The notes beneath the pieces are model-generated. The model searched no databases. It had not been told where the DNA came from and saw nothing but the letters and a program-made list of their open reading frames with translations. A stretch of DNA of 41,344 nucleotides, taken from the IMG/VR virus record IMGVR_UViG_2681813235_000001, positions 1 to 41,344 of that record; one strand, given 5' to 3'. The position numbers and the translations under genes are program-made. Positions 5,640 to 40,153 of the stretch are shown here, piece after piece (positions within the stretch are counted from its first letter, which is position 1; each line of letters starts with the position of its first letter). This DNA comes from a virus. Taxonomy: Duplodnaviria > Heunggongvirae > Uroviricota > Caudoviricetes.

Positions 5640-6686
5640 TCAGTTATCCTTTAATAACCTATACAGTTTTGTAGGGGTACATCCTGAGGATATTGTTAAG
5701 TTCGTAGCACGCCTTTTCCGCCCACCATCGTATAAACGAAAACCAGTAGTAGACGAATTTTCTGCGTCAAAAACTATAGACAGTATAACGTCCCCAGACT
5801 TTTTTTGCCATTCATATGTGCCGTTAGTTGGTTTTGTCATCTGTAGACGCCAGTCAAGAACGCCATCACTTATAGCTGAGAGATCGTTTAGTACGTCTAG
5901 TACGGATTGATATCTTTCATTTGGATCTACATGAATGCATTTGTTTACTATTGTTATCAATTTTTTATGTATGTGGGAAGGATACTCTTTTAATGGATAG
6001 GAGCCATTAATTATCGACTCTCTGAGTTGTTCAATCGTTCTAAATGCAGATCTTTCTCTTTCAAAATTATCATATCCAACACACATTCTATATATGGTTA
6101 ATCCTGCCTGATATATGTCATATGTGAAATTATAATCATTTGTTGATAAAGAAAAATATTCCGGTGGCACATGAAAATGATATCCAAACTCAGGCGCAGC
6201 TCTCGATTCCTCATTGACTAACTGAGACAATCCAAAGTCAGATAGCATGGCCTCATTTCTGTTTGATATCATGATGTTATTAGGTTTTATATCAAAATGC
6301 ATAAGACCTTTTGAGTGTATATGATAAAGCCCACTTAAAAATTGAATAGAATACCGTATTATCTCCCTGCTCGTAAGATTAATCTTTTTTATTAATTGGT
6401 TTAGCGAACCATTATGATAAAATGGCATGGCTATATAGATATTGCTCTCACATTGAGCAGCATACTGAACTTGCACAATATTTGGATGTGCATGTTTATA
6501 GAGAAGCCTTGCTTCATTAAAGTAGTCGTCGTGGTTAGTGTTTTCTTTTTTTTCTATTTCTTTAATCACCAAGTCATGAGCTAGGTGTCTGTCATGAGCC
6601 AGATATACTTTTGAAAAACAACCCTGTTCTTCTAGATCACGAATCCATTCGAATGCTACATCAGCTCTTTTGTATGGAGTCAGCAT
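5640..6686 (-). CDS. Hanks-type (eukaryotic-like) protein kinase
   Basis: 348 aa; kinase motifs visible in translation: Gly-rich loop region GCFSKVY, invariant-Lys region LVIKEI, catalytic loop HFDIKPNN, SDFG (DFG motif); ATG overlaps stop of upstream ORF (ATGCTGA); visibly AT-rich. Confidence 0.85.
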   Translation of the reverse strand: MLTPYKRADVAFEWIRDLEEQGCFSKVYLAHDRHLAHDLVIKEIEKKENTNHDDYFNEARLLYKHAHPNIVQVQYAAQCESNIYIAMPFYHNGSLNQLIKKINLTSREIIRYSIQFLSGLYHIHSKGLMHFDIKPNNIMISNRNEAMLSDFGLSQLVNEESRAAPEFGYHFHVPPEYFSLSTNDYNFTYDIYQAGLTIYRMCVGYDNFERERSAFRTIEQLRESIINGSYPLKEYPSHIHKKLITIVNKCIHVDPNERYQSVLDVLNDLSAISDGVLDWRLQMTKPTNGTYEWQKKSGDVILSIVFDAENSSTTGFRLYDGGRKRRATNLTISSGCTPTKLYRLLKDN

Positions 6687-7141
6687 CCCCTTACCTCCGC
6701 AGATAGTGCAGCCAAAACAGCTTCATTTGTTTCAGTTGTAAAACCAGAATTATCGATTCCATTTATATTACGGTGTGACTTCAATATTTCTTTATACTCG
6801 ATCTCTGTTAGGTTCAATGATGACTTCATACCAGATTTTCTAATGGTGTAATATCTTCTTACATCACTGCTTGAAAATGCTTCTTGAATAACAGCTTCTA
6901 TATAAAGGCGGTCAATGCTAAGATTATCAGAGTTTGATTCAGTAACGCGTATAGCAGCTAATTCAACATTATATAAATTAAGAATGTCGAGGATGTTATT
7001 TCGCACATACTTTAATTTTTCTGGTGTGTCTAAGGTCGAAGGTATTTTAATAACATCAACACATTTGAGTGCAGACTCATCAGTGCAATATACAACAAAA
7101 GATGTAACTTTGGGCGCCGCCCTAACACCTAGTATTCTCAT
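6680..7141 (-). CDS. hypothetical protein, first gene of the cassette downstream of the repressor
   Basis: 153-aa ORF, AT-rich, no recognisable motif; translationally coupled to the kinase. Confidence 0.5.
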   Translation of the reverse strand: MRILGVRAAPKVTSFVVYCTDESALKCVDVIKIPSTLDTPEKLKYVRNNILDILNLYNVELAAIRVTESNSDNLSIDRLYIEAVIQEAFSSSDVRRYYTIRKSGMKSSLNLTEIEYKEILKSHRNINGIDNSGFTTETNEAVLAALSAEVRGC

Positions 7142-8282: not shown

Positions 8283-8822
8283 ATGCAACCACTTACATAC
8301 CAACAGACTAGCGGATTTAGCCCGACTGCGGTGATAAATCGTTCTCAAATAAAACAGGTGCCAGGCCACGAAAAAATCCGTGATGCCGTTCGCGCCTGGT
8401 CGGCTGCAGATAATCAGGATGTTGTTGCCGCACTCATTGTGAATGAGTATCGGGAGCAGGGCGGCGGCACCATCGATTTCCCTGATGATGTCAGCCGTGC
8501 ACGCCAGAAGCTGTTCCGCTTCCTCGATAACAAATTCGATTCTGAAAAATACCGAAATAACGTGCGTGAACTGACCCCGGCAATTCTGGCGGTACTACCG
8601 CTGGAATATCGCGGTTACCTGGTTGAGCAGGATAGCTTCATGACTCGGTTGGCTGAAATGGAAAAGGAACTCAGTGAGGCAAAACAGGCTGTCATTCTCA
8701 ACGCACCACGCCACCAGAAACTGAAGGAGATGAGTGAAGGCATTGTGTCGATGTTTCGTGTGGACCCGGACCTGGCTGGTCCATTGATGGCGATGGTCAC
8801 CACCATGCTGGGGGCAATATGA
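8283..8822 (+). CDS. YdaT-family protein (CII-position regulator)
   Basis: Shares EY-x-RQGGG and PAILA-x-LP blocks with my recollection of E. coli Rac YdaT; lies between Cro-like and O genes. Confidence 0.55.
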   Translation: MQPLTYQQTSGFSPTAVINRSQIKQVPGHEKIRDAVRAWSAADNQDVVAALIVNEYREQGGGTIDFPDDVSRARQKLFRFLDNKFDSEKYRNNVRELTPAILAVLPLEYRGYLVEQDSFMTRLAEMEKELSEAKQAVILNAPRHQKLKEMSEGIVSMFRVDPDLAGPLMAMVTTMLGAI

Positions 8823-8908
8823 CAGGTTCAGAAATGGCGAAAGCCGGTCTGCGCGAACAGAACCGACTTTCAGGTGCAAATCGTAACACACTCATTGCGG
8901 GAGGAATT

Positions 8909-9838
8909 ATGGCAAACACTGCTGAGATATTCAATTTTCCAGTGCCGGATGTGGCACAAAAGGAGCCGCGCGTGGCAGATCTCGATGATGGTTATACGCG
9001 CATTGCAAATGAGTTGCTGGAAGCTGTGATGCTGGCCGGATTAACACAGCACCAGCTTCTGGTCTTCCTGGCTGTCATGCGCAAAACATATGGCTTTAAT
9101 AAAAAACTGGATTGGGTGAGCAACGAGCAACTTTCCGAGTTGACCGGGATATTGCCGCACAAGTGTTCTGCTGCAAAAAGTGTTCTGGTAAAGCGTGGGA
9201 TTTTTATTCAGAGCGGGCGGAATATCGGCATTAATAATGTGGTCAGTGAATGGTCAACATTACCCGAATCAGGTAAGAAAAATAAAGTTTACCTGAAAGA
9301 GGTAAATTTACCTGAATCAGGTAAGAAAAGTTTACCCAAATCAGGTAAAGGCGTTTACCCGAATCAGGTAAACACAAAAGACAAACTAACAAAAGACAAT
9401 ATAAAACCTTTTTCGTCCGAGAATTCTGGCGAATCCTCTGACCAACCAGAAAACGATCTTCCTGTGGAGAAACCAGATGTTGCAATTCAGAGCGGCAGCA
9501 GGTGGGGGACAGCAGAAGACCTGACCGCCGCAGAGTGGATGTTTGACATGGTGAAGACCATCGCGCCATCAGCCAGAAAACCGAATTTTGCAGGGTGGGC
9601 TAACGATATCCGTCTGATGCGTGAACGTGATGGACGTAACCACCGCGACATGTGTGTACTGTTCCGCTGGGCCTGCCAGGACAACTTCTGGTCCGGTAAC
9701 GTGCTGAGTCCGGCCAAACTCCGCGACAAGTGGACCCAGCTCGAAATCAACCGGAACAAGCAACAGGCTGGCGTGACAGTCGGCAAACCAAAACTCGACC
9801 TGACAAACACTGACTGGATTTACGGGGTGGATCTATGA
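8909..9838 (+). CDS. O: replication initiator O (lambda O family)
   Basis: From ATG 8909 (GGGAGG upstream): MANTAEIFNF...VADLDDGY...RKTYGFNK parallels lambda O N-terminus; iterons inside the gene; stop/start overlap with P. Confidence 0.85.
   Translation: MANTAEIFNFPVPDVAQKEPRVADLDDGYTRIANELLEAVMLAGLTQHQLLVFLAVMRKTYGFNKKLDWVSNEQLSELTGILPHKCSAAKSVLVKRGIFIQSGRNIGINNVVSEWSTLPESGKKNKVYLKEVNLPESGKKSLPKSGKGVYPNQVNTKDKLTKDNIKPFSSENSGESSDQPENDLPVEKPDVAIQSGSRWGTAEDLTAAEWMFDMVKTIAPSARKPNFAGWANDIRLMRERDGRNHRDMCVLFRWACQDNFWSGNVLSPAKLRDKWTQLEINRNKQQAGVTVGKPKLDLTNTDWIYGVDL
9260..9373. repeat. ori iterons (about 5 copies of TTTACC(C/T)(G/A)AATCAGGTAA) with A-rich flank
   Basis: Copies at ~9260-9277, 9288-9306 (variant), 9307-9325, 9331-9350, 9354-9373, followed by A-rich tract 9374-9415; located inside O as in ori-lambda. 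Confidence 0.7.
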
Positions 9839-10536
9839 AAAACATCGCCGCACAGATGGTTAACTTTGACCGTGAGCAGATGCGTCGGATCGCCAACAAC
9901 ATGCCGGAACAGTACGACGAAAAGCCACAGGTACAGCAGGTAGCGCAGATCATCAACGGTGTGTTCAGCCAGTTACTGGCAACTTTCCCGGCGAGCCTGG
10001 CTAACCGTGACCAGAATGAACTGAACGAAATCCGCCGCCAGTGGGTGCTGGCTTTTCGGGAAAACGGGATCACCACAATGGAACAGGTTAACGCTGGAAT
10101 GCGCGTAGCCCGTCGGCAGAATCGACCATTCCTGCCATCACCCGGGCAGTTTGTCGCCTGGTGCCGGGAAGAAGCATCCGTTAACGCCGGGCTGCCAAAC
10201 GCCAGCGAGCTGGTTGATATGGTTTACGAGTATTGCCGGAAGCGTGGCCTTTATCCGGATGCAGAGTCTTATCCATGGAAATCAAACGCGCACTACTGGT
10301 TGGTTACCAACCTGTATCAGAACATGCGGGCCAATGCGCTTACTGATGCGGAATTACGGCGCAAGGCTGCCGATGAACTGACCTGTATGACCACGCGAAT
10401 TAACCGTGGTGAGACGATACCTGAACCAGTAAAACAACTTCCTGTCATGGGCGGTAGACCTCTAAATCGTGCACAGGCTCTGGCGAAGATCGCAGAAATC
10501 AAAGCGAAGTTTGGGCTGAAAGGAGACAGAGCATGA
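9835..10536 (+). CDS. P: replication protein P (DnaB helicase loader)
   Basis: 233-aa translation matches lambda P from memory almost throughout (MKNIAAQMVNFDREQMRRIANNMPEQYDEKPQVQQVAQIINGVFSQLLATFPASLANRDQNE...). Confidence 0.95.
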   Translation: MKNIAAQMVNFDREQMRRIANNMPEQYDEKPQVQQVAQIINGVFSQLLATFPASLANRDQNELNEIRRQWVLAFRENGITTMEQVNAGMRVARRQNRPFLPSPGQFVAWCREEASVNAGLPNASELVDMVYEYCRKRGLYPDAESYPWKSNAHYWLVTNLYQNMRANALTDAELRRKAADELTCMTTRINRGETIPEPVKQLPVMGGRPLNRAQALAKIAEIKAKFGLKGDRA

Positions 10537-10792
10537 GTGAGCAATACTGGTTTTTGTGTGCAAAATTGGGCTAGAAGGAAATATCAATCGACGCAGAAAT
10601 AATTAAGTTATTTTTTTAATAGAACTGAGCTTGAAGATATGATTTTGCAGGGATACTTACGCTGTGAGCAGTCGAAGACATTGCAACATGCAAGTGATTC
10701 TCAATATTCATAGATGACAAAACATAATGCGAAGATGTAACATATTAATTTCTATGATTTGAAATGTCTAAGTTGTAAAAAGGAAAACTATA

Positions 10793-11050
10793 ATGTATGT
10801 AGATATTTATAAAAGTGATATTTGTAATTCTAAGTATCTTGTTGTCCCAGCGAATACAGTGGTTACAGGAAATGCCCTCGGGGTGAGTGATCCTGACTTC
10901 TCGAAATTTTCAATTATCAAAAAAAGTGAGTTGTTAGAACCTGGGATGATAGGTATCAATGACGTAAGAGCTAAAAGCGATATCAATTCTATTGGATATC
11001 ATATTTTAAGAGTGAGAACTTCTTTTCAAGAAGACACAACTAAAAATTAA
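10793..11050 (+). CDS. hypothetical protein in AT-rich island (weakly YcgL-domain-like)
   Basis: 85-aa ORF with AAAAGGA 8 nt upstream; visibly AT-rich island 10540-11080; weak resemblance MYVDIYKS...SKYLVV to YcgL (M-x-VIYRS...YLYV). Confidence 0.35.
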   Translation: MYVDIYKSDICNSKYLVVPANTVVTGNALGVSDPDFSKFSIIKKSELLEPGMIGINDVRAKSDINSIGYHILRVRTSFQEDTTKN

Positions 11051-11086
11051 TTTTTGATTTTTTTAGAATCAACCTTTCATAATCAT

Positions 11087-11205
11087 GTCATCGGAGCCTG
11101 AACAACTCCGATGACTTCTGCGCTAAACGGGGACGTTTATGCGCACATACAATCCAAATTATCTTCTCCCTTCACAGATGTAGAAATGCACCTGCGGTTT
11201 TTTAT
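11087..11205. repeat. direct repeat copy 1 (hairpin plus ~90-bp conserved segment)
   Basis: Hairpin GTCATCGGAG-(9 nt)-CTCCGATGAC at 11087-11115, then segment near-identical to 13427-13516. Confidence 0.75.
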
Positions 11206-11270
11206 ATTCGGTGTTTGGCCTCGGCAGTATAGAGCTGGGAATCTCTGTTCGTCTGGCGGCTAAAGGCGAT

Positions 11271-11360
11271 ATGGAAATCGTGATGTCTTGGCCTAAAGTA
11301 GTTGCAACAGTTGTAGCAGCTATGGCTGTGATCATCATGGTGTCCATTTACTGGGGTTGA
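11271..11360 (+). CDS. possible small hydrophobic peptide (29 aa)
   Basis: Hand-translated: MEIVMSWPKVVATVVAAMAVIIMVSIYWG; single predicted TM helix; weak SD (AAGG, 4-nt spacing); antisense ORF 11159-11347 also open, so strand is ambiguous. Confidence 0.25.
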   Translation: MEIVMSWPKVVATVVAAMAVIIMVSIYWG

Positions 11361-11448
11361 CGATATGATTTATCTGGGGATATATTCTTACGCGTTGCCG
11401 CAAAATCGGCACACGGGATTGGCGTCCCGGAATACTACTCAACGCATG

Positions 11449-11469
11449 CCGCGTTAAGCGGTTTTTTTA
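11449..11469 (+). terminator. weak candidate intrinsic terminator
   Basis: CCGC-GTTAA-GCGG followed by TTTTTTT; stem only 4-5 bp. Confidence 0.3.
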
Positions 11470-11624
11470 TGCGCTAAGCACGGCTACGTCCAAATTATGG
11501 TGGGCTGTGTGAGGGCTTCTTCGGGAGCGCCGGGTTTGAGTAGCCGGTTACGCCAACCTTGCACAGTTCACCACCAGTCGATTGGCGTCGTTGGTGGTGA
11601 TGGTTAACCTGATGAGGTGATACT

Positions 11625-12230
11625 ATGACTACTCAATTAGCATTCCACAAAACGACGTTTACCCCGATTTGCCACAATAACAGAATTTGGCTTACTGCCA
11701 CTGAAGTTGGTTTAGCTCTGGAATATGCGGACGATAAAGCAGTTCAGCGTATTTACTCTCGTCACTCAGATGAATTTACAGATATGATGACAAGGGTGGT
11801 CAAAGTGACCACCCCTCGTGGAATGCAGGAGTCTCGAGTATTTAGCCTTCGCGGAGCCCATCTGATCGCCATGTTTGCTCGTACTCCTGTGGCCAAAGAA
11901 TTCCGCCGCTGGGTGCTGGATATTCTCGATCGAGAAATTCAACAATCCCCAATCACAAAACAATTCACTGATAACGAACTTTGCACACTTGCTTGGTTAT
12001 GGCGGGCAAGTGACACAATGTTAACCGCTTGCCAAAACGTCACTCCGCTTCTTCAGGTAGCAGAACACCGCGAAGCCGGTCGCTTCACTTCAATCGAACA
12101 AGAATATCCCCGGATACTCAATAAGGCACAGGCAATCCTTGCCAGAGAAACGGCACATGTAAAATTCCGGCCGTGGCAGGATGATAAGTGGAGTCGAGTA
12201 TTGACGCATTTACGTTCTGAACGGCTGTAA
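11625..12230 (+). CDS. Bro-N domain protein (putative antirepressor-like)
   Basis: N-terminal region (ICHNNRIWLTATEVGLALEY ... RVFSLRGAHLIAMFARTPVAKEFRRWVLDIL) fits the Bro-N pattern from memory; GAGGTG SD. Confidence 0.55.
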   Translation: MTTQLAFHKTTFTPICHNNRIWLTATEVGLALEYADDKAVQRIYSRHSDEFTDMMTRVVKVTTPRGMQESRVFSLRGAHLIAMFARTPVAKEFRRWVLDILDREIQQSPITKQFTDNELCTLAWLWRASDTMLTACQNVTPLLQVAEHREAGRFTSIEQEYPRILNKAQAILARETAHVKFRPWQDDKWSRVLTHLRSERL

Positions 12231-12529: not shown

Positions 12530-12946
12530 ATGAATAAAAACGACCTTGAAGCATTATCTGACACTAGGCTTAATGAGGCCAAATGCTTGCTTGATCATGG
12601 CTTTTTTCATGGTGCATATTATCTTTGTGGGTATGCAGTTGAATGTGCATTGAAGGCCTGTATTGCCAAGTCATTTTTACAACATGAGTTTCCAAACAAA
12701 AAAGTCGTAAATGATTCATATACTCATGATTTGTCGCAACTTCTCAAAATTGCCAACTTACATCAAATTTTGATTGCTGACGCAAAAAATGATGTTTCGT
12801 TGGAGATTAACTGGTCGGTCGTTAAAGACTGGAGCGAGCAATTTAGATACGACAATAACATAAGTAAAGCTATGGCCGAACAATTGTTTGATGCTGTAGG
12901 TGACCAAAATTCTGGAGTTTTGAAATGGGTAAAAGCACACTGGTAA
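12530..12946 (+). CDS. HEPN-domain protein
   Basis: 138 aa; central block GAYYLCGYAVECALKACIAKS ... THDLSQLLKIA matches classic HEPN helices; no clear R-x(4-6)-H motif seen; AT-rich. Confidence 0.55.
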   Translation: MNKNDLEALSDTRLNEAKCLLDHGFFHGAYYLCGYAVECALKACIAKSFLQHEFPNKKVVNDSYTHDLSQLLKIANLHQILIADAKNDVSLEINWSVVKDWSEQFRYDNNISKAMAEQLFDAVGDQNSGVLKWVKAHW

Positions 12947-13326
12947 TCGGCAGAGAGTTGACAAAAGATATGGAATTCTCAGGTCAATTTTTGTTAAAAA
13001 AACTCAAGTTACAGAATTTAACTATTGATGCTGCAATGTGGTTTTATTACCCAGATCTATCTTGGAGATATATTTTAGTTATCAGTGACTTCTCAGAACG
13101 TGGACCGGCAGAAATATATAGAAAAATCAGTGAGATAAATAGAAATAGCATATCAAAAAAGTATAAGCCGATACCATTAGAAGCAATTGAGGCTAAGGGG
13201 GATTCAGCTTTTATTTATAAAATGTTAAAAGGATTTGCTAGAGTCAACGATGGTAAAGTTCGCGTTTCTAATTCTATGGTAAATGGTTTAGAAATCGTTG
13301 ACTGTCTGATCTATGAGTTAAAATAA
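12925..13326 (+). CDS. hypothetical protein, overlapping partner of the HEPN gene
   Basis: 133-aa ORF; start overlaps HEPN 3' end by 22 nt with GGAG upstream; no nucleotidyltransferase GS...DxD motif found; AT-rich. Confidence 0.45.
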   Translation: MGKSTLVIGRELTKDMEFSGQFLLKKLKLQNLTIDAAMWFYYPDLSWRYILVISDFSERGPAEIYRKISEINRNSISKKYKPIPLEAIEAKGDSAFIYKMLKGFARVNDGKVRVSNSMVNGLEIVDCLIYELK

Positions 13327-13397
13327 GAAATCTCTTGCTGGGTATCATTATTGTTTAAATGACTTTTGATTTTCAATAATCAACTTGTCATAATTAA

Positions 13398-13516
13398 GTC
13401 ACCGGAGTTTGAACTCCTCCGGTGACTTCTGCGCTAAACGGGGACGTTTATGCGCACATACAATCCAAACTCTCTTCTCCCTTCACAGATGCAGAAATGC
13501 ACCTGCAATTCTTTGC
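13398..13516. repeat. direct repeat copy 2 (hairpin plus ~90-bp conserved segment)
   Basis: Hairpin GTCACCGGAG-(9 nt)-CTCCGGTGAC at 13398-13426, then segment near-identical to 11116-11205; immediately upstream of ninB. Confidence 0.75.
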
Positions 13517-13547
13517 ATCTAGCGTTTGACCTCTGCGGAGGTGAAGC

Positions 13548-16728: not shown

Positions 16729-17104
16729 GCTGGTTATCGCTGCATTCTTCTTTACTGTCATCGGTTCTTTCATCTGGTCTGCCAACCACTACTACAGCAA
16801 ATATCAGCACGAAAAGAAACGTGCTGATGAGGCTGTACAAAATGTTGAATCTGCAACAGCCATTACCCGTAACGTCCTGCAATCACTGCAAATCGTCAAT
16901 ACAGTTATAGAGGTTAACCAGCATGCAAAACAGCAGATCGCACTGGAGTCACAGAGAACCCAGGAAGATATCAAAGTGGCTGTTGCGGATGATGATTGTG
17001 CTTCACGTCCTGTGCCTGCTGCCGCTGCTGACCGGTTGCGGAAATTCGCGAACGGTTTACGTGAGCGCTCCGGTGGCACCACTGCCAGCCAGCCTGACTT
17101 CTGA
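16712..17104 (+). CDS. Rz: Rz-like i-spanin
   Basis: N-terminal TM helix then coiled-coil-like periplasmic region; overlaps endolysin 3' end. Confidence 0.65.
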   Translation: MKLSYKLVIAAFFFTVIGSFIWSANHYYSKYQHEKKRADEAVQNVESATAITRNVLQSLQIVNTVIEVNQHAKQQIALESQRTQEDIKVAVADDDCASRPVPAAAADRLRKFANGLRERSGGTTASQPDF

Positions 17105-17261
17105 TACTCCTGTACCGTTTATACCCAATCCGCTGACGTATGGTACCAGTCTGGAGTTGAATGTTGCTCTATTGTCAGCCTTGGGACAATGTAATTTTGA
17201 TAAAACTGGAATCAGAAAGATTGAATCACGGCGCGCTATTTTGCATTCGAAAGACAAATAG
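16989..17261 (+). CDS. Rz1: Rz1-like o-spanin lipoprotein (overlapping Rz in another frame)
   Basis: From ATG 16989 in ORF 16923-17261: MMIVLHVLCLLPLLTGCGNS has a lipobox (LTGC); Pro-rich mature part; starts inside Rz and extends past it. Confidence 0.5.
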   Translation: MMIVLHVLCLLPLLTGCGNSRTVYVSAPVAPLPASLTSDTPVPFIPNPLTYGTSLELNVALLSALGQCNFDKTGIRKIESRRAILHSKDK

Positions 17262-17629
17262 CTCGAGTTATATTTTTCATTATCAGTGCGAATGCGCCTA
17301 ATAAAGCTGTGTATTATGATAATTTTATAAAACTTATGGGCTTAAATTCAGACGCCAGCGTTTTTATAGTGTAATGTAGCAGCTTACATAAAATATGCAT
17401 CGTGATTAACTATTAGTCCAACCTTTTGGACCAATATGAAAGTGGAAGTTTGTACAAATCGTTTGTAGATGATTAAACATGTGTCTAGTAGAGCTAGTCA
17501 TGAACAGGTTTATTACGTATCATTTTGTTTAGATTATCGAGAGTACAACTAGTAGAGCAGCTAATCTTTAGATAGTGCCAGTGATGTTCACTTACGATAA
17601 ACTAACCTTTTCATTCAGTGGAGGTTATG

Positions 17630-18064
17630 ATGTGGCATACATTACTTAACTGGCCTTGGGGAACTGTGTGGTCAGCTGTATCGGCTTTAGGTTCAATTGT
17701 AACTGTTACATTAGGTTTTTGGGCAATGAATGTTTGGCGGCGACAGGAGGCTCTGAAGGCCAAAATGGCTCTGAAAATGGCAGTGGCTGATTATTCAAAT
17801 GCATTATCACAGCTACCTTTATCTCTTAGTCGTAATGTTCGTATTGAAAAAAGGGCCGAGCTACGAGAGTTAAGCCATAAATTAAATGCTATTAATAATG
17901 CTTTTTTGATATGCGAACATATGTTGGAAAAATACCCACGTGTAAACAGCGGTTGTCGTTCTTTATCTGTTGCCCACAAAGAATATATTAGAATGAGAGA
18001 TAATAGTATTCAGGCGAAATATATTTGTCATAATATTCTTTCAGAACAGTTTGTATTCAAATGA
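17630..18064 (+). CDS. hypothetical membrane-anchored protein (cargo between lysis and packaging genes)
   Basis: ORF 17618-18064 begins with GTG; ATGs at 17627/17630 follow GGAGG; N-terminal TM helix; AT-rich gene and flanks. Confidence 0.45.
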   Translation: MWHTLLNWPWGTVWSAVSALGSIVTVTLGFWAMNVWRRQEALKAKMALKMAVADYSNALSQLPLSLSRNVRIEKRAELRELSHKLNAINNAFLICEHMLEKYPRVNSGCRSLSVAHKEYIRMRDNSIQAKYICHNILSEQFVFK

Positions 18065-18191
18065 AAATGAACGATTGGTATTTACTTGCCGTTTATTCAT
18101 TGGATTGAAAAGTCTATTTAGCAAACCGTGTTAAAGCGGTTTCTGATTGCAGTTATGGTTAGATATTTAACGAAAACTACAGGGATAATAG

Positions 18192-18542
18192 ATGCCTCCA
18201 CGAACCCCAAAAGCCTGCCGCGTTCGCGGCTGCCGCCATACCACGACTGACCCATCAGGCTACTGCGAAAGCCACAAAAGCGAAGGCTGGAAGCAATACA
18301 AGTCTGGCCAGTCCCGTCATCAGCGCGGTTATGGTTCGAAGTGGGACGTTATCCGCGCGCGTGTGCTGAAGCGTGACAAAGGCCTGTGCCAGTTGTGCCT
18401 GCGTGCCGGTGTGGTGCGCGAGGCGAAAACCGTTGACCACATCATCCCTAAAGCGCATGGCGGCACCGATGCAGACAGTAACCTACAGAGTCTGTGCTGG
18501 CCGTGTCATAAGGCGAAGACGGCCCGTGAACGGATTAAGTAA
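18192..18542 (+). CDS. HNH endonuclease (terminase-associated)
   Basis: 116 aa with Cys pairs and DHIIPKAHGG...N...LCWPCH (HNH motif); directly upstream of the terminase genes as in HK97-like phages. Confidence 0.8.
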   Translation: MPPRTPKACRVRGCRHTTTDPSGYCESHKSEGWKQYKSGQSRHQRGYGSKWDVIRARVLKRDKGLCQLCLRAGVVREAKTVDHIIPKAHGGTDADSNLQSLCWPCHKAKTARERIK

Positions 18543-28629: not shown

Positions 28630-30454
28630 ATTTGAGCTTAAGGCGTTGATCACCGGTGTCGACAGGCTTTCTCCCGCGCTGTCGAAAATGCAAAAGAAAA
28701 TCCGGGGATTTAAACGCCAGGCGGAAGAAGCGTCACAGGGTGGGCTGGCGCTTGGTGGCGGACTGGCAGCGGGTCTGACGCTTTCCCTGAAATCTTATGC
28801 CGATCAGGAAAACGCCGCCACCGGGCTGAAAGTCGCCATGATGGATGCGAATGGCGAGGTTGGAAAGAGCTTTCAGGACATCAATAAACTGGCTATTGGC
28901 CTGGGTAACCAGCTACCCGGTACAACGGCTGATTTCCAGAACATGATGCAGATGCTGGTGCGTCAGGGGATCCCGGCAGAAAACATTCTTGGCGGTGTGG
29001 GTAAAGCGACAGCTTATCTTGCGGTACAACTGAAAAAAACACCGGAAGCGGCTGCTGAGTTTGCTGCAAAGATGCAGGATGCTACCGGAACGGCGTCAGA
29101 AGACATGATGGGGCTGTTCGACACTATCCAGAAGGCGTTTTATCTGGGCGTTGACGATACCAACATGTTGTCCTTCTTCACTAAAACCAGTTCTGTTCTG
29201 AAGATGGTGAACAAGGACGGTCTTCAGGCTGCACAGAGCCTTGCCCCCATCAGCGTCATGATGGATCAGATGGGGATGAACGGGGAGTCGGCAGGTAATG
29301 CCCTGCGAAAAGTTATCCAGTCCGGATTAAGCGTTAAGAAAATCAGGGACGTCAATAAAATCATGGCCCGCCAGAAACTCGGGGTACAGCTCGATTTTAC
29401 TGACGGCAAAGGAAGTTTTGGCGGTCTTGATAACATGTTCAGGCAACTGGCAAAGCTGCGAAAACTGACCGACGTTAAGCGAACAGGTGTACTTAAGGCA
29501 ATATTTGGTGATGATGCCGAAACCCTTCAGGTGGTCAATGCACTAATCGATAAAGGAAAGGATGGCTACGATCAGATCCAGCAGAAGATGAATAAACAGG
29601 CCAGCCTGAATAAACGTGTTCAGGCCCAGCTTGGTACGCTGTCCAACCTGTGGGAGGCAATGACGGGGACCGCAACTAACGGCCTTGCGGCTATTGGCGG
29701 CGCATTTTCTGGTGACGCCAAAAATATCACGCAATGGCTGGGGGAGTTGGGGGAGAAATTCACGAAGTTTGCGGATGAAAATCCCCGGGTTATTCGCGGC
29801 GTCGTCGGGCTTGCTGCCGGTCTTGCGATTCTGAAACTGGGATTGATGGGCGTGGGCAGTGCCATCAGTATCGTCAGCAGGATCATGTCGATGACGCCGA
29901 TTGGCATGATTGCGACGGCGATTGCCCTGGCTGCGGGATTAATTATCACTAACTGGGATGTTGTCGGACCTTATTTTAAGAAACTCTGGGAAACCATTAG
30001 TCCTTATTTTGAGGCTGGCTGGGAACTTCTGAAGAAGGTTTTTGCCTGGTCGCCGCTGGGGATGGTGATCAATAACTGGGGACCGGTTGTTAAGTGGTTT
30101 CAGGATATGTGGGATAAGCTGAAGCCGATTATTGAATGGTTTACCGACAGTTCCGGTGACACGGTCGATGCCATTAACTCGGCGCAGTGGGGCGCGGGTG
30201 CTTATGATGCTTATGGGACGGGAATACCGGCACGGGGATACACTCCTTATCCGGCGGTGGATCCGGCTCAGGCAAACAACGCCTCCGATGCCACAGGCTC
30301 GAATCCCTTCATGATTAATAAAGCTACCGCGCCAAAAGTTGATGGTGAGATCAAGGTATCATTTATAAATATGCCACCAGATATGCGGGTTACGGAAACA
30401 CGCTCCAGTGGCATTGATATAAATCACGATGTTGGCTATACCCGATTTTGGTAG
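28622..30454 (+). CDS. tail tape measure protein
   Basis: 610 aa, Ala/Gly/Lys-rich with hydrophobic central segment; canonical position. Confidence 0.85.
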   Translation: MAEFELKALITGVDRLSPALSKMQKKIRGFKRQAEEASQGGLALGGGLAAGLTLSLKSYADQENAATGLKVAMMDANGEVGKSFQDINKLAIGLGNQLPGTTADFQNMMQMLVRQGIPAENILGGVGKATAYLAVQLKKTPEAAAEFAAKMQDATGTASEDMMGLFDTIQKAFYLGVDDTNMLSFFTKTSSVLKMVNKDGLQAAQSLAPISVMMDQMGMNGESAGNALRKVIQSGLSVKKIRDVNKIMARQKLGVQLDFTDGKGSFGGLDNMFRQLAKLRKLTDVKRTGVLKAIFGDDAETLQVVNALIDKGKDGYDQIQQKMNKQASLNKRVQAQLGTLSNLWEAMTGTATNGLAAIGGAFSGDAKNITQWLGELGEKFTKFADENPRVIRGVVGLAAGLAILKLGLMGVGSAISIVSRIMSMTPIGMIATAIALAAGLIITNWDVVGPYFKKLWETISPYFEAGWELLKKVFAWSPLGMVINNWGPVVKWFQDMWDKLKPIIEWFTDSSGDTVDAINSAQWGAGAYDAYGTGIPARGYTPYPAVDPAQANNASDATGSNPFMINKATAPKVDGEIKVSFINMPPDMRVTETRSSGIDINHDVGYTRFW

Positions 30455-30545
30455 CCAGGATTCCCCTCACAGGTATTGCTGGTTGTAAGTCATAAATAGA
30501 GTGATAGAATTAATGCACATTTAGAAAAATGTTAATAGGCGAAAA

Positions 30546-31076
30546 ATGAAAGGCTATATCACAGCAAGTGTAATTCTTGGAGCAGCGGCTATTTTTTCAT
30601 CTCTCATAATCTCTGGCAACATCTCCTTTAAAGATGAACATATTATTCAGTTATCTGGAGGAGCCATAAAACTTGGTGATGTTTATAAAGAAAATAAATT
30701 GATAAGTGCAAAGATTATTTTTCCAGATAATCAGGGTGAACAGATTCTTGTTGTCGACGGCAATCCTGAAAACTTTAAGGAGGATTTTCAGGAGAAATTA
30801 AATAAAGTAATAAAAACTTTAAATGCGTCAAAGAAAAAAGATGAAGAGAAAGTTAGCCTGGATAATTTAAGTGTTATTGAAGAGTCTAAACTAGAGCTCG
30901 TTTCTGCGGTGCGTTACTCTGCTCAGTATGTTCCTATGTTTACTCTGACGCTGGACAAAAAAGAAATTACCATGCCTAAAAATACGGTAATATTTCCATT
31001 TGCCAGCGATGAAACAGCTAAGTATTTAAATGAACAACAGCAAAAGTATAAAGATTCGTTGTTTCTGACTCGCTAA
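30546..31076 (+). CDS. hypothetical exported/membrane-anchored protein (AT-rich cargo within tail cluster)
   Basis: 176 aa; N-terminal hydrophobic signal/anchor (ASVILGAAAIFSSLIISG); visibly AT-rich; own terminator follows. Confidence 0.45.
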   Translation: MKGYITASVILGAAAIFSSLIISGNISFKDEHIIQLSGGAIKLGDVYKENKLISAKIIFPDNQGEQILVVDGNPENFKEDFQEKLNKVIKTLNASKKKDEEKVSLDNLSVIEESKLELVSAVRYSAQYVPMFTLTLDKKEITMPKNTVIFPFASDETAKYLNEQQQKYKDSLFLTR

Positions 31077-31095
31077 TTAATAAAATTCATTACAA

Positions 31096-31126
31096 GGCCA
31101 CCTTCTAATAGGTGGCTTTTTTATTT
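31096..31126 (+). terminator. Rho-independent terminator
   Basis: GCCACC-TTCTAATA-GGTGGC followed by TTTTTTATTTT. Confidence 0.6.
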
Positions 31127-31137
31127 TCGGAGTGTAT

Positions 31138-32466
31138 ATGACGTGGAAAGACAGGCTTCAGGATGCGTCATTTCGAGGTGTGCCGTTTAAGGTTGAAGAA
31201 GAAAGTGCGGGAACCGGCCGTCGTGTGGAAACACACGAATATCCGAACCGCGACAAACCCTATACCGAAGATCTGGGAAAAGTCACTTTCCGCCCGTCCA
31301 TCACAGCTTATGTGGTGGGAGATGACTGCTTTGACCAGCGCGATCGCCTGATTGAAGCGCTGAATAAACCCGGTCCCGGCACGCTTGTCCACCCGACATA
31401 TGGTGAGCTGAAAGTCTGTGTTGACGGGGAAGTTCGGGTCAGCACATCGAAAAGTGAAGGGCGTATTGTCCGCTTTGACCTGAAGTTTGTCGAAGCGGGA
31501 GAACTCTCTTACCCCACATCAGGTGCGGCGACGGCGCAGACGCTGATGTCATCCTGTTCTGCACTGGATGACTGCATCAGTGACAGTTTCAGTGGTTTCA
31601 GTATCGATGGTGTGGCGGATTTCGTGCAGAACGACGTTATCGGTAATGCCAGCATAATACTGGGGTATGTTTCTGATGCGATGAAAGTGGTGGATTCTGC
31701 CGTATCGGATGCCGCCAGGCTGTTGCAGGGGGATATCTCGGTACTTCTGCCGCCGCCATCGTCAGGCAAAAATTTCGTTGAGCAGGTGCAGAAAATGTGG
31801 CGTACCGGGAAACGCCTTTATGGTAACGCCAGCGACCTGGTCACCATGATCAAAACGCTTTCCGGTGTCAGCCTCGGCAGCGATCTGCAACCGCGCGGCG
31901 TCTGGAAAACGGACAGTAAAACCACCGCCACGGCGACGCAGCAGCGTAACGTGGTTGCCAGCACCCTTCGTACGACCGCAATCAGCGAAGCGGCGTATGC
32001 CGTCACCCGATTGCCTGCGCCAACAACTTCCGCGGTGATGCAGAATTCCGCAGTGGGGCAGGCAACAACACCCGCGCAGAGCACTGGCTGGCCTTCCGTC
32101 ACGCATCCGGCACTGAACAATGCACCGGCGGTGAAAAACACGGTTGACCTGCCGACGTGGGAAGAACTGACTGACATTCGCGACACACTGAATACGGCAA
32201 TTGATAAGGAGTTGTCCCGTACAACCAGCGATGCGCTGTTTCTGGCGCTGCGCCGGGTGAAAGCAGATCTGAATGCGGATATCAACACGCGCCTTGAACA
32301 GTCTGCACGGATCATTCAGCGCACACCGGATGAGGTTTTACCCGCGCTGGTGCTGGCAGCGACCTGGTTTGATAACGCGGCGCGTGACGCGGACATTATC
32401 CGGCGTAATGCCATTACGCATCCCGGCTTTGTGCCGGTGATCCCTCTGAAGGTGCCAGTGCAATGA
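31138..32466 (+). CDS. DNA circularisation protein (Mu N-like)
   Basis: ATG 31138 with GGAG upstream (ORF 31132 begins with GTG); N-terminal MTWKDRLQDASFRGVPF...THEYPNRD fits the Mu gpN-type N-terminal domain from memory. Confidence 0.7.
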   Translation: MTWKDRLQDASFRGVPFKVEEESAGTGRRVETHEYPNRDKPYTEDLGKVTFRPSITAYVVGDDCFDQRDRLIEALNKPGPGTLVHPTYGELKVCVDGEVRVSTSKSEGRIVRFDLKFVEAGELSYPTSGAATAQTLMSSCSALDDCISDSFSGFSIDGVADFVQNDVIGNASIILGYVSDAMKVVDSAVSDAARLLQGDISVLLPPPSSGKNFVEQVQKMWRTGKRLYGNASDLVTMIKTLSGVSLGSDLQPRGVWKTDSKTTATATQQRNVVASTLRTTAISEAAYAVTRLPAPTTSAVMQNSAVGQATTPAQSTGWPSVTHPALNNAPAVKNTVDLPTWEELTDIRDTLNTAIDKELSRTTSDALFLALRRVKADLNADINTRLEQSARIIQRTPDEVLPALVLAATWFDNAARDADIIRRNAITHPGFVPVIPLKVPVQ

Positions 32467-38256: not shown

Positions 38257-38730
38257 TTGTACATAAAGACAATCGACTACTATCGTATGCCTGCATTGGT
38301 ATTGGGTAGCTGCGCTTATAAGTTTATGCACCAGCAGGGCACGTTCACACCTATTGTCAAGGTTGGCGCTACAACACTAACACCTACAGGCACACCACAA
38401 GGTTTTTATGAGCGTATAGGGGATACTTTTAAATGCTGGATAAATTTTTATGAGAATGGTGTTGATTTAAGAATTCTTTCTGGGCAATTCAAAATTGAGG
38501 GGTTGCCATTTGCTATAACGTCGTTAGATAGCACCACAAGCTTCCCTGTTGTTCACGCTGCATATATTAAAACAACGGCTATCGGCATGTCGGCCACAAT
38601 GTCAGGGACCACCATTAACCTCAGAAAGAATTATAGTTCTTCCTTGTTTAATGGCAGTGACTTTATCTCAAGCTTGGAGCATTTCATTAAGTTTAAAATA
38701 GAGTCCACGGTTGCAAGAACAGCAGTATAA
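38257..38730 (+). CDS. hypothetical protein (Thr/Ser-rich)
   Basis: 157-aa ORF followed by a terminator shared with the convergent acyltransferase gene. Confidence 0.35.
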   Translation: MYIKTIDYYRMPALVLGSCAYKFMHQQGTFTPIVKVGATTLTPTGTPQGFYERIGDTFKCWINFYENGVDLRILSGQFKIEGLPFAITSLDSTTSFPVVHAAYIKTTAIGMSATMSGTTINLRKNYSSSLFNGSDFISSLEHFIKFKIESTVARTAV

Positions 38731-38731
38731 T

Positions 38732-38760
38732 AAAAGCGCCCGGTTGGGCGCTTTTATTTC
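38732..38760. terminator. bidirectional intrinsic terminator between convergent genes
   Basis: AAAGCGCCC-GGTT-GGGCGCTTT flanked by A/T tracts on both sides. Confidence 0.5.
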
Positions 38761-39695
38761 TATAGCAAATACTTTACTTTGCTATTTAGCTTAACTAATA
38801 CGTAAGAAACAGGAACTAGAACCCCAATAACAAAAAGATATCGTAGTGCACTTAATTTGTCATCGTATACATAATCCTGCCCAATGAATATTATTGCGGG
38901 ATGAACTAAATAAACAGCCGTAGCAAAGGAAGATAGGTGTTTATACTTTCCAAGAATATCAATCTTCATTATGTAAGTGAACAATAACGGCGAAATAAGC
39001 AATAATGAAAACATCATATCTAATTGCTTATCTGCACCGAATAACTTCAGATTAAGATAAGATTCTGCAATCAACAATGCAAAGGCTGATGCGACTATCG
39101 GCAAGCCATAATTTTTTACATTACTTATGCCAGCTCTGCGGATAAGTAAACCAATGATCATAAATGGAAGACAGTCAAATAAGAAGTTTCTATGGGATGG
39201 GGTAAATGCAAGAACCTTTGATATAATTCCGCTGAAAACATTTAGGTTTGCAGCATATTGAAGTAAGGTGCCAGATATATATAAAATCATTGACAAAATT
39301 ATCAAGGTGCTTGCTGGTTTGCCCATCAATAAATAAAGTAGGCATCCAGCCAAGATTACTCCAGTTATATACCATAAAGCATAATAACCATTAAATATAT
39401 TTATTAGAGTAGTAACAACTCCTGCTTTACCAAGCCAAAATGGGAGGTATATAATAGACCATACGACATATAAAATAAGCATCCTGGAAATCCACTTTAT
39501 GAAGTCTTTCCCTGTTTCAATTCTAGTAAAAAAATAACCAGTTATTATAAGAAATAGAGGTACTGATAATCTAAAAATTCCGTTAACAAGGAGGTGACTT
39601 ACTGTTGTATTAAGCTCTCTAAGAATATCAAGGTGTATAAATACAACAAAAAATGCCGCAGTAACTTTTAATATATCTATTGATAGATGTCTCAT
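38760..39695 (-). CDS. acyltransferase-3 family integral membrane protein (putative O-antigen acetyltransferase, lysogenic conversion)
   Basis: Polytopic membrane protein with many hydrophobic helices, AT-rich, next to the integrase, the usual site for oac-type conversion genes; first ATG at 39695 (ORF from GTG at 39710). Confidence 0.65.
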   Translation of the reverse strand: MRHLSIDILKVTAAFFVVFIHLDILRELNTTVSHLLVNGIFRLSVPLFLIITGYFFTRIETGKDFIKWISRMLILYVVWSIIYLPFWLGKAGVVTTLINIFNGYYALWYITGVILAGCLLYLLMGKPASTLIILSMILYISGTLLQYAANLNVFSGIISKVLAFTPSHRNFLFDCLPFMIIGLLIRRAGISNVKNYGLPIVASAFALLIAESYLNLKLFGADKQLDMMFSLLLISPLLFTYIMKIDILGKYKHLSSFATAVYLVHPAIIFIGQDYVYDDKLSALRYLFVIGVLVPVSYVLVKLNSKVKYLL

Positions 39696-39708
39696 TGATA
39701 GATGTCTC
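39679..39708. repeat. perfect 15-bp tandem duplication spanning the acyltransferase start
   Basis: ATTGATAGATGTCTC at 39679-39693 repeated at 39694-39708; on the coding strand gives GTG-AGACATCTATCA / ATG-AGACATCTATCA (MRHLS-MRHLS). Confidence 0.8.
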
Positions 39709-39988
39709 ACATGCGTCTAAGAAGGAAATTGGCAGTATTTTATGAATTATGACTTTAAAATGATTAACAATCAACATATTACATCATTTGCACTAGTAGC
39801 CTTGATCATAGAATCAGCATCTGTTTGGCCTGTCGTTCACGGCATAGACATTCACAAGGTTATTTAACCAAGCGCAACTATATCTTGCCAGACAAATCAT
39901 TCTGACTGCGGTTTTGTGTTTTTTAACTTGATCGACTCCCGGCTTTAGCAATGCTGTGTATTTATTCAGTATAAATGGAGGGCGGGTT

Positions 39989-40153
39989 ATGGCACGCAGA
40001 TACGAGATACCCTGCGCTTTTACGGCAGCAATCAAATCAGAACCAAGTGGTCGCAAGATGGTGTCAACGCAGGACTTTGTAACACAGCGGGCAAAGGTCA
40101 ACAGGCACTGGTCACAAGTGAATATTTGTAGTAATTGTGACGATCATAATTAA
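39989..40153 (+). CDS. hypothetical small protein next to integrase (very uncertain)
   Basis: ATG 39989 preceded by GGAGGG at 7 nt; 54 aa; no motif recognised. Confidence 0.2.
   Translation: MARRYEIPCAFTAAIKSEPSGRKMVSTQDFVTQRAKVNRHWSQVNICSNCDDHN

Follow-up and report, generated by a model that had tools for sequence, protein, structure and literature searches.

In phage lambda, the ren gene lies directly 3' of the replication gene P and 5' of the nin leader, overlaps the P stop codon (ATGA), and belongs to the dispensable, variable content of the genome. Extra genes inserted between conserved neighbours have reportedly been described by Hendrix and colleagues as phage "morons," and a classical moron carries its own promoter and its own terminator. 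On the protein side, E. coli YcgL (PF05166, formerly DUF709; NMR structure 2h7a) is encoded by a chromosomal core gene of the Enterobacteriaceae, which ycgJ and pliG separate from minCDE over a distance of about 1.6 kb; the protein has a C-terminal polyproline (PPPP) tail.

The window analyzed here, a stretch of 41,344 nucleotides, is a lambdoid prophage. Between its P gene and the first copy of a nin-leader element lies an AT-rich island that holds a small open reading frame, ORF85. The island and its flanks comprise the following features.

8819-9838: O, upstream of the island
9835..10536, plus strand: replication gene P, 233 aa (Pfam Phage_lambda_P, E 5.6e-62), the left flank of the island
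10526..11078, plus strand: variable cargo cassette, with junctions from pairwise blastn
10537..10792, plus strand: AT-rich non-coding leader, 256 nt, 32% G+C
10780..10784, plus strand: Shine-Dalgarno sequence AAGGA, 8 nt before the ATG, read from the sequence
10793..11050, plus strand: ORF85, 85 aa, ATG start, the sole island ORF of at least 60 aa
11059..11225, plus strand: nin-leader element copy 1 (D1a), 167 nt, a direct repeat that forms the right flank of the island

ORF85 and lambda ren share their position and orientation, 3' of P and 5' of the nin leader, as well as their character as dispensable, variable content. However, ORF85 lies 256 nt from P rather than overlapping its stop codon, neither Pfam nor PHROG matches connect it to Ren, and the ren gene of a comparison locus, L022, is unrelated to it by inspection. 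A 13-codon ORF (MSEQYWFLCAKLG) at 10533-10574 does share the coupling geometry of lambda ren, its ATG overlapping the stop codon of P (ATGA); it may be what is left of an earlier ren-like gene or may have arisen by chance, and its third codon is altered in the Escherichia albertii copy. ORF85 also resembles a moron in being a single gene of deviant composition (0.32 versus 0.49 G+C) between blocks that are conserved in related phages. Its identity to YcgL is about 16-18%, and in contrast to YcgL, it has no polyproline tail, is phage-borne, and is rare. Taking all of the comparisons together, we judge it reasonably probable that the island is a horizontally exchanged cargo cassette with one real gene, whose product would be an early-expressed, accessory putative binding protein.

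A sequence-only reading of this DNA had noted an AT-rich stretch of about 540 bp between P and a first repeat, in a position typical of cargo such as ren. The composition bears this out: G+C is 0.322 across 10537-11058 (0.329 in ORF85 and 0.320 in the 256-nt leader), compared with 0.484 in O, 0.536 in P, and 0.494 in the whole window. At 32% against 49%, the island lies 2.3 standard deviations below the mean of all 522-nt windows (z = -2.3), and only 0.83% of these are equally AT-rich, which places it in the lowest 0.8%. The repeat that was said to bound the island exists as well, since 11059-11225 recurs at 13370-13536 with 84% identity. The left edge falls slightly earlier than had been stated. 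Homology to other E. coli prophages stops at 10525 in pairwise blastn, 11 nt before the P stop codon, and the last 11 nt of P (10526-10536) are already part of the variable segment. The right junction was located at 11045/11046 against a ren-type prophage and at 11078/11079 against VCH_CASS14-type prophages.

Comparing the same interval among prophages, it becomes clear that the segment from P to the nin leader is a slot for interchangeable cargo, and at least three unrelated cargos occupy it. The slot of E. coli 95-3322 holds ren itself, overlapping the P stop codon, together with an unrelated AT-rich gene of 88 aa, whose product has no family match and no alignment to ORF85. In many other E. 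coli strains, the slot is filled by a minus-strand gene of 115 aa of the VCH_CASS14 integron-cassette type (Pfam E 5.7e-20). The suggestion of a ren-like cargo position is thereby supported, and the slot has the look of a hot spot at which AT-rich single-gene cassettes recombine. The alternative cargos map as follows in complete E. coli genomes.

L022, 838-1673: ren and the 88-aa gene
L023, 1042-1389, minus strand: VCH_CASS14-type gene

The ORF85-bearing cargo is scarce. Neither the 5,426 complete E. coli genomes, searched in near and distant modes and down to blastn sensitivity, nor 50,697 phage records contained a match to the island DNA; a 101-nt match of 72% identity in the plasmid collection was judged to be due to chance. 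Scans with the single protein returned one identical IMG/VR contig and nothing in the species-representative genomes, and tblastn of two ORF85 relatives against phages gave no match. In the scattered draft assemblies that carry the island, it is always situated between P and a Bro-N/P22_AR_C ant gene, and the genes further downstream vary.

We then considered whether ORF85 is a gene at all. An early description of one well-initiated ORF preceded by a Shine-Dalgarno sequence proved correct, with AAGGA at 10780-10784 and 8 nt to the ATG; the other ORFs of at least 30 aa that overlap ORF85 are TTG-initiated minus-strand frames of 34-75 aa without support. Alone, ORF85 has no match in Pfam, PHROGs, NCBIfam, PADLOC, or PDB sequences. 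A word-indexed search of 5.8 billion clusters recovered only the identical protein, on approximately 30 contigs of E. coli draft assemblies, plus one variant from E. albertii. An exhaustive phmmer/HMMER search of 1.84 billion representatives yielded 19 proteins at E <= 1e-3. About 16 of these small proteins, 79-114 aa in size, are full-length and 32-51% identical to ORF85; three very long repetitive matches were left out of the family. When the family alignment was used as the query, the word-indexed search recovered six members. The relatives share the start methionine and the motif M-x-V-D-I-Y-x-S ... K-F-L-x-V-P-x-G ... D-x-D-F ... L-x-P-G-x-I-G ... G-Y-H-I, within which D4, Y6, and F36 are invariant across the alignment. 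A profile search had been put forward as the check on conservation of the ORF, and with about 16 full-length relatives having a conserved start and conserved motifs, the ORF is conserved.

The E. albertii copy offers a closer comparison. Within ORF85, 11 substitutions (5 synonymous and 6 non-synonymous) and no indels separate it from the window, which gives a pN/pS of 0.32, a value that rests on a small sample of 11 substitutions. In the 256-nt leader, the same comparison shows about 19 substitutions and 2 indels. Mainly because of the family conservation, and in addition because of the E. albertii comparison, we conclude that ORF85 is a real protein-coding gene. With a GRAVY of -0.15 and a pI of 6.5, its product is predicted to be a soluble, near-neutral, single-domain protein.

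These data also bear on the view that ORF85 is a spurious frame and that the island serves as regulatory or spacer DNA without coding content, such as an H-NS-bound spacer or a termination zone like lambda tR2. Such a view could draw on the AT-richness, on the lack of any curated-library match for ORF85 alone, and on the single-sequence AlphaFold model, which was unusable (pLDDT 37). It is nevertheless very improbable. The full-length relatives come from different genera at 32-51% identity and preserve the start and the motifs, the model built from the alignment is confident and matches a solved fold, and ORF85 is better conserved than the leader and indel-free, while the leader has no RNA structure signal. 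We regard a spurious ORF in a non-coding island as refuted by the full-length relatives, the conserved motifs, and the alignment-based model that matches 2h7a.

The model of ORF85 generated from the 17-sequence alignment reached a pLDDT of 82 and a pTM of 0.70. Its predicted elements are beta strands at residues 2-8, 14-19, and 39-47, a helix at 57-67, and a further beta strand at 70-73. A Foldseek search of the whole PDB ranked YcgL (2h7a) first, with a probability of 0.90 and a TM score of 0.57; YcgL was the best structural match of the model by two methods, and the model has the YcgL alpha/beta fold as seen in 2h7a. In BFVD, no viral structure matched the model meaningfully. In profile comparisons, the family profile aligned to 2h7a within the PDB in two colinear stretches (E 0.14), and hhalign of the family against a YcgL alignment gave an E value of 2.9e-4 with a probability of 40% over 69 colinear columns, although that YcgL alignment is shallow and its members are at least 76% identical. 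The Y and S of the strand-1 motif are common to YcgL.

At the level of sequence families, PF05166 (YcgL) matched 5 of the 17 family members, the best being the relative P0014 with 19.4 bits (E 0.0014) against a cut-off of 25, whereas ORF85 itself had no match to it at E <= 1 or E <= 10. DUF6139 (PF19636) matched 10 of the 17 members over their full length, with positions 1-75 aligned to positions 1-74 of 77 and a best E of 2.7e-5 (24.5 bits against a gathering cut-off of 27); ORF85 itself gave no match to DUF6139 even at E <= 10 through HMMER's filters. The gathering thresholds, 25 bits for PF05166 and 27 bits for PF19636, were thus reached by neither ORF85 nor its relatives. DUF6139 and the ORF85 group agree in protein size and align along their full length, with scores below the cut-off, and on these sequence grounds, DUF6139 is the closest sequence family of the group. 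Since all DUF6139 scores fall below the cut-off and ORF85 has none, ORF85 and its relatives are best described as a divergent, unannotated sister group. Overall, the modeling suggests that ORF85 is a remote relative of the YcgL/DUF6139 superfamily with an alpha/beta fold. The weak YcgL-like features seen at the outset are therefore correct as a statement about fold and superfamily, with 2h7a on top by two methods and the family thresholds not reached. No functional data on YcgL, DUF709, or DUF6139 were found in the literature searched, and for that reason, the fold yields no mechanism.

More can be learned from the genomic context of the relatives. Wherever the context was readable, they were located in prophage early regions of Enterobacterales (Yersinia enterocolitica, Rouxiella badensis, and other enterobacterial assemblies), with some of them placed between the replication genes and Q and others next to the integrase, where the leftward early operon ends. 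Their orientation is that of the neighbouring genes, from which often only 30-87 nt separate them, and like ORF85, their genes are AT-rich relative to their own loci (G+C 0.34-0.42 versus 0.46-0.54). AGGA-type ribosome-binding sites with similar spacing precede most of the homologues that were read and the E. albertii copy, with a weaker GGGA/GAAGG in L020. Their neighbours include DNA methyltransferases (L009, L013, and L018), Pol III theta homologues (L009, L011, L017, and L020), and exonucleases.

We propose that ORF85 would be a delayed-early gene on the rightward transcript that starts at pR and includes O and P, in the manner of ren in lambda. Co-transcription from pR is the simplest model because no terminator-like site was detected from P to the end of ORF85 and because the homologues lie within early operons. 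As the domain is too small for an enzyme and shows no catalytic motif, a non-enzymatic binding role is suggested, in which ORF85 would stoichiometrically bind a macromolecule of the host or of a rival phage. The alternating residues D4, Y6, and S8 should face one side of the sheet, which suggests a conserved binding surface; this face would be made up of D4-x-Y6-x-S8 of strand 1 and the C-terminal GYH motif. The protein would then serve as a dispensable accessory in host takeover or inter-phage conflict and not in replication itself.

The neighbours of the relatives invite a more specific proposal, namely that ORF85 is an early protein with an anti-restriction or anti-defence role, or one that modulates host DNA metabolism, with a host nuclease, a defence system, or a replisome component as its target. 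The recurrent adjacency to DNA methyltransferases, phage Pol III theta homologues, and exonucleases in early operons fits this idea, as does a small, slightly acidic to neutral protein, like many phage inhibitors. However, the association is a loose one, of a sort common to all accessory early regions, the neighbours of ORF85 within the window are P and an ant module, and no structural match to known anti-defence proteins was present in the PDB or BFVD. We therefore consider this proposal unlikely. Equally doubtful is a combination of fold and function in which ORF85 and its approximately 16 relatives form a hitherto unrecognized, prophage-restricted branch of YcgL/DUF6139 that acts as a small inhibitor in conflicts with the host or with other phages; its target might be, for instance, a host defence or exclusion system or a DNA-metabolism protein.

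The 256-nt AT-rich leader, which contains no ORF of at least 60 aa, is unusually long for simple co-transcription. A separate promoter for ORF85 may lie within it, which would point to lysogenic expression, or H-NS may silence it. Two promoter-like sites are present, at 10616-10643 and 10714-10743, each with 9 of 12 hexamer matches, and the -10 hexamers of the E. albertii copy at these sites (TATAAT and TAATAT) are nearer to the consensus. The count of promoter-like sites, 6 compared with 3.3 +/- 1.9 in shuffles, is not clearly above chance. The leader has no significant RNA structure signal (fold z = +0.70), Rfam has no match inside 10537-11058 and matches only downstream, and the H-NS high-affinity motif has no match in the island when two mismatches are allowed.

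It is conceivable on these grounds that ORF85 is a moron expressed in lysogeny, driven by its own leader promoter in the repressed prophage and contributing superinfection exclusion, anti-phage defence, or altered host physiology. The foreign composition and the long leader ahead of ORF85 are in keeping with such a gene, the promoter-like sites and their E. albertii counterparts could serve it, and candidate defence genes, namely a HEPN pair and a protein kinase, occupy other AT-rich islands of this prophage. On the other hand, 9/12 matches are weak and are expected by chance in AT-rich DNA, no terminator-like site follows ORF85 as it would in a classical moron, PADLOC returned no match, and the placement of the homologues, within early operons and with short gaps to the adjacent genes, speaks for early lytic expression. 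Lysogenic expression thus seems possible but rather improbable, and the cargo cassette with an early-expressed gene remains our preferred reading, within which a promoter of ORF85's own in the leader is possible.

Downstream of the island, the order is the element at 11059-11225, the isrK/C4-type RNAs and ant, the HEPN pair, the second repeat copy, and a phage 82-like nin region (orf33, orf151, ninE, ybcO, rusA, and Q). The 167-nt direct repeat (11059-11225 and 13370-13536) flanks the ant and HEPN cassettes and is homologous to the nin-leader segment of phage 82, which is annotated with a -35, a -10, and a "possible regulator-binding site" before orf33. Copy 1 has a promoter-like site at 11054-11083 and stable hairpins (RNA fold z = -3.18 versus shuffles), and the first hairpin stays paired through a T/A to C/G double change between the copies. 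Copy 2 precedes orf33 and the ninB-like orf151. In copy 1, only a truncated orf33 of 14 codons is present, a hint that recombination at the repeat element brought in the cassettes. The following features lie between the copies.

11382-11433: c4 a1/b1 target (Rfam, below the gathering score)
11396-11468: isrK (Rfam, 58.9 bits)
11493-11578: C4 antisense RNA (Rfam, 72.7 bits)
11625-12230: Bro-N/P22_AR_C antirepressor (ant) gene, directly 3' of the isrK/C4 RNAs
within 12530-13326: HEPN-domain protein, 138 aa (Pfam HEPN E 3e-6; PADLOC candidate PDC-M28A E 1.8e-7; phrog_5737)
within 12530-13326: HEPN partner, 133 aa (no domain match; phrog_5760)

A good promoter-like site (TTGACG-18-TATATT, 11357-11386) precedes the ant module, and 11382-12230 looks like a P1/P7-style ant module controlled by antisense RNA, of the Gifsy-1 IsrK type, in a lambdoid nin region. 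The two genes at 12530-13326 form an AT-rich overlapping pair that is replaced by other genes in sister prophages; this HEPN pair is a candidate toxin-antitoxin or defence pair. A further AT-rich island on the minus strand at 5640-7141 (G+C about 0.32-0.36) adjoins the repressor gene and encodes two proteins.

within 5640-7141, minus strand: eukaryotic-type protein kinase, 348 aa (Pfam Pkinase E 1.2e-46)
within 5640-7141, minus strand: 153-aa protein, no match

The kinase resembles the Stk kinase of phage 933W, which is implicated in exclusion, and sister prophages carry HipA_2 with DUF3037, or DUF7946/7947, at this site. Other segments with a G+C of at most 0.36, at 17100-18200, 30300-31200, and 38540-40050, are probably additional cargo islands.

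What began as an orphan ORF now belongs to a small, defined family with a confidently predicted fold, a family not annotated in Pfam, PHROGs, or NCBIfam, and ORF85 merits annotation as a phage protein of the YcgL/DUF6139-like type. The comparison of prophages also documents hot swapping of cargo between P and the nin leader in lambdoid prophages. Barring the discovery of a phenotype, ORF85 is a real, rare, and ordinary phage accessory gene that would not surprise a specialist. Were the inhibitor reading true, it would provide the first functional handle on the uncharacterized YcgL superfamily; likewise, if the phage-borne branch shows a phenotype in plating, in exclusion, or through a binding partner, it could give the first functional clue for YcgL/DUF6139.
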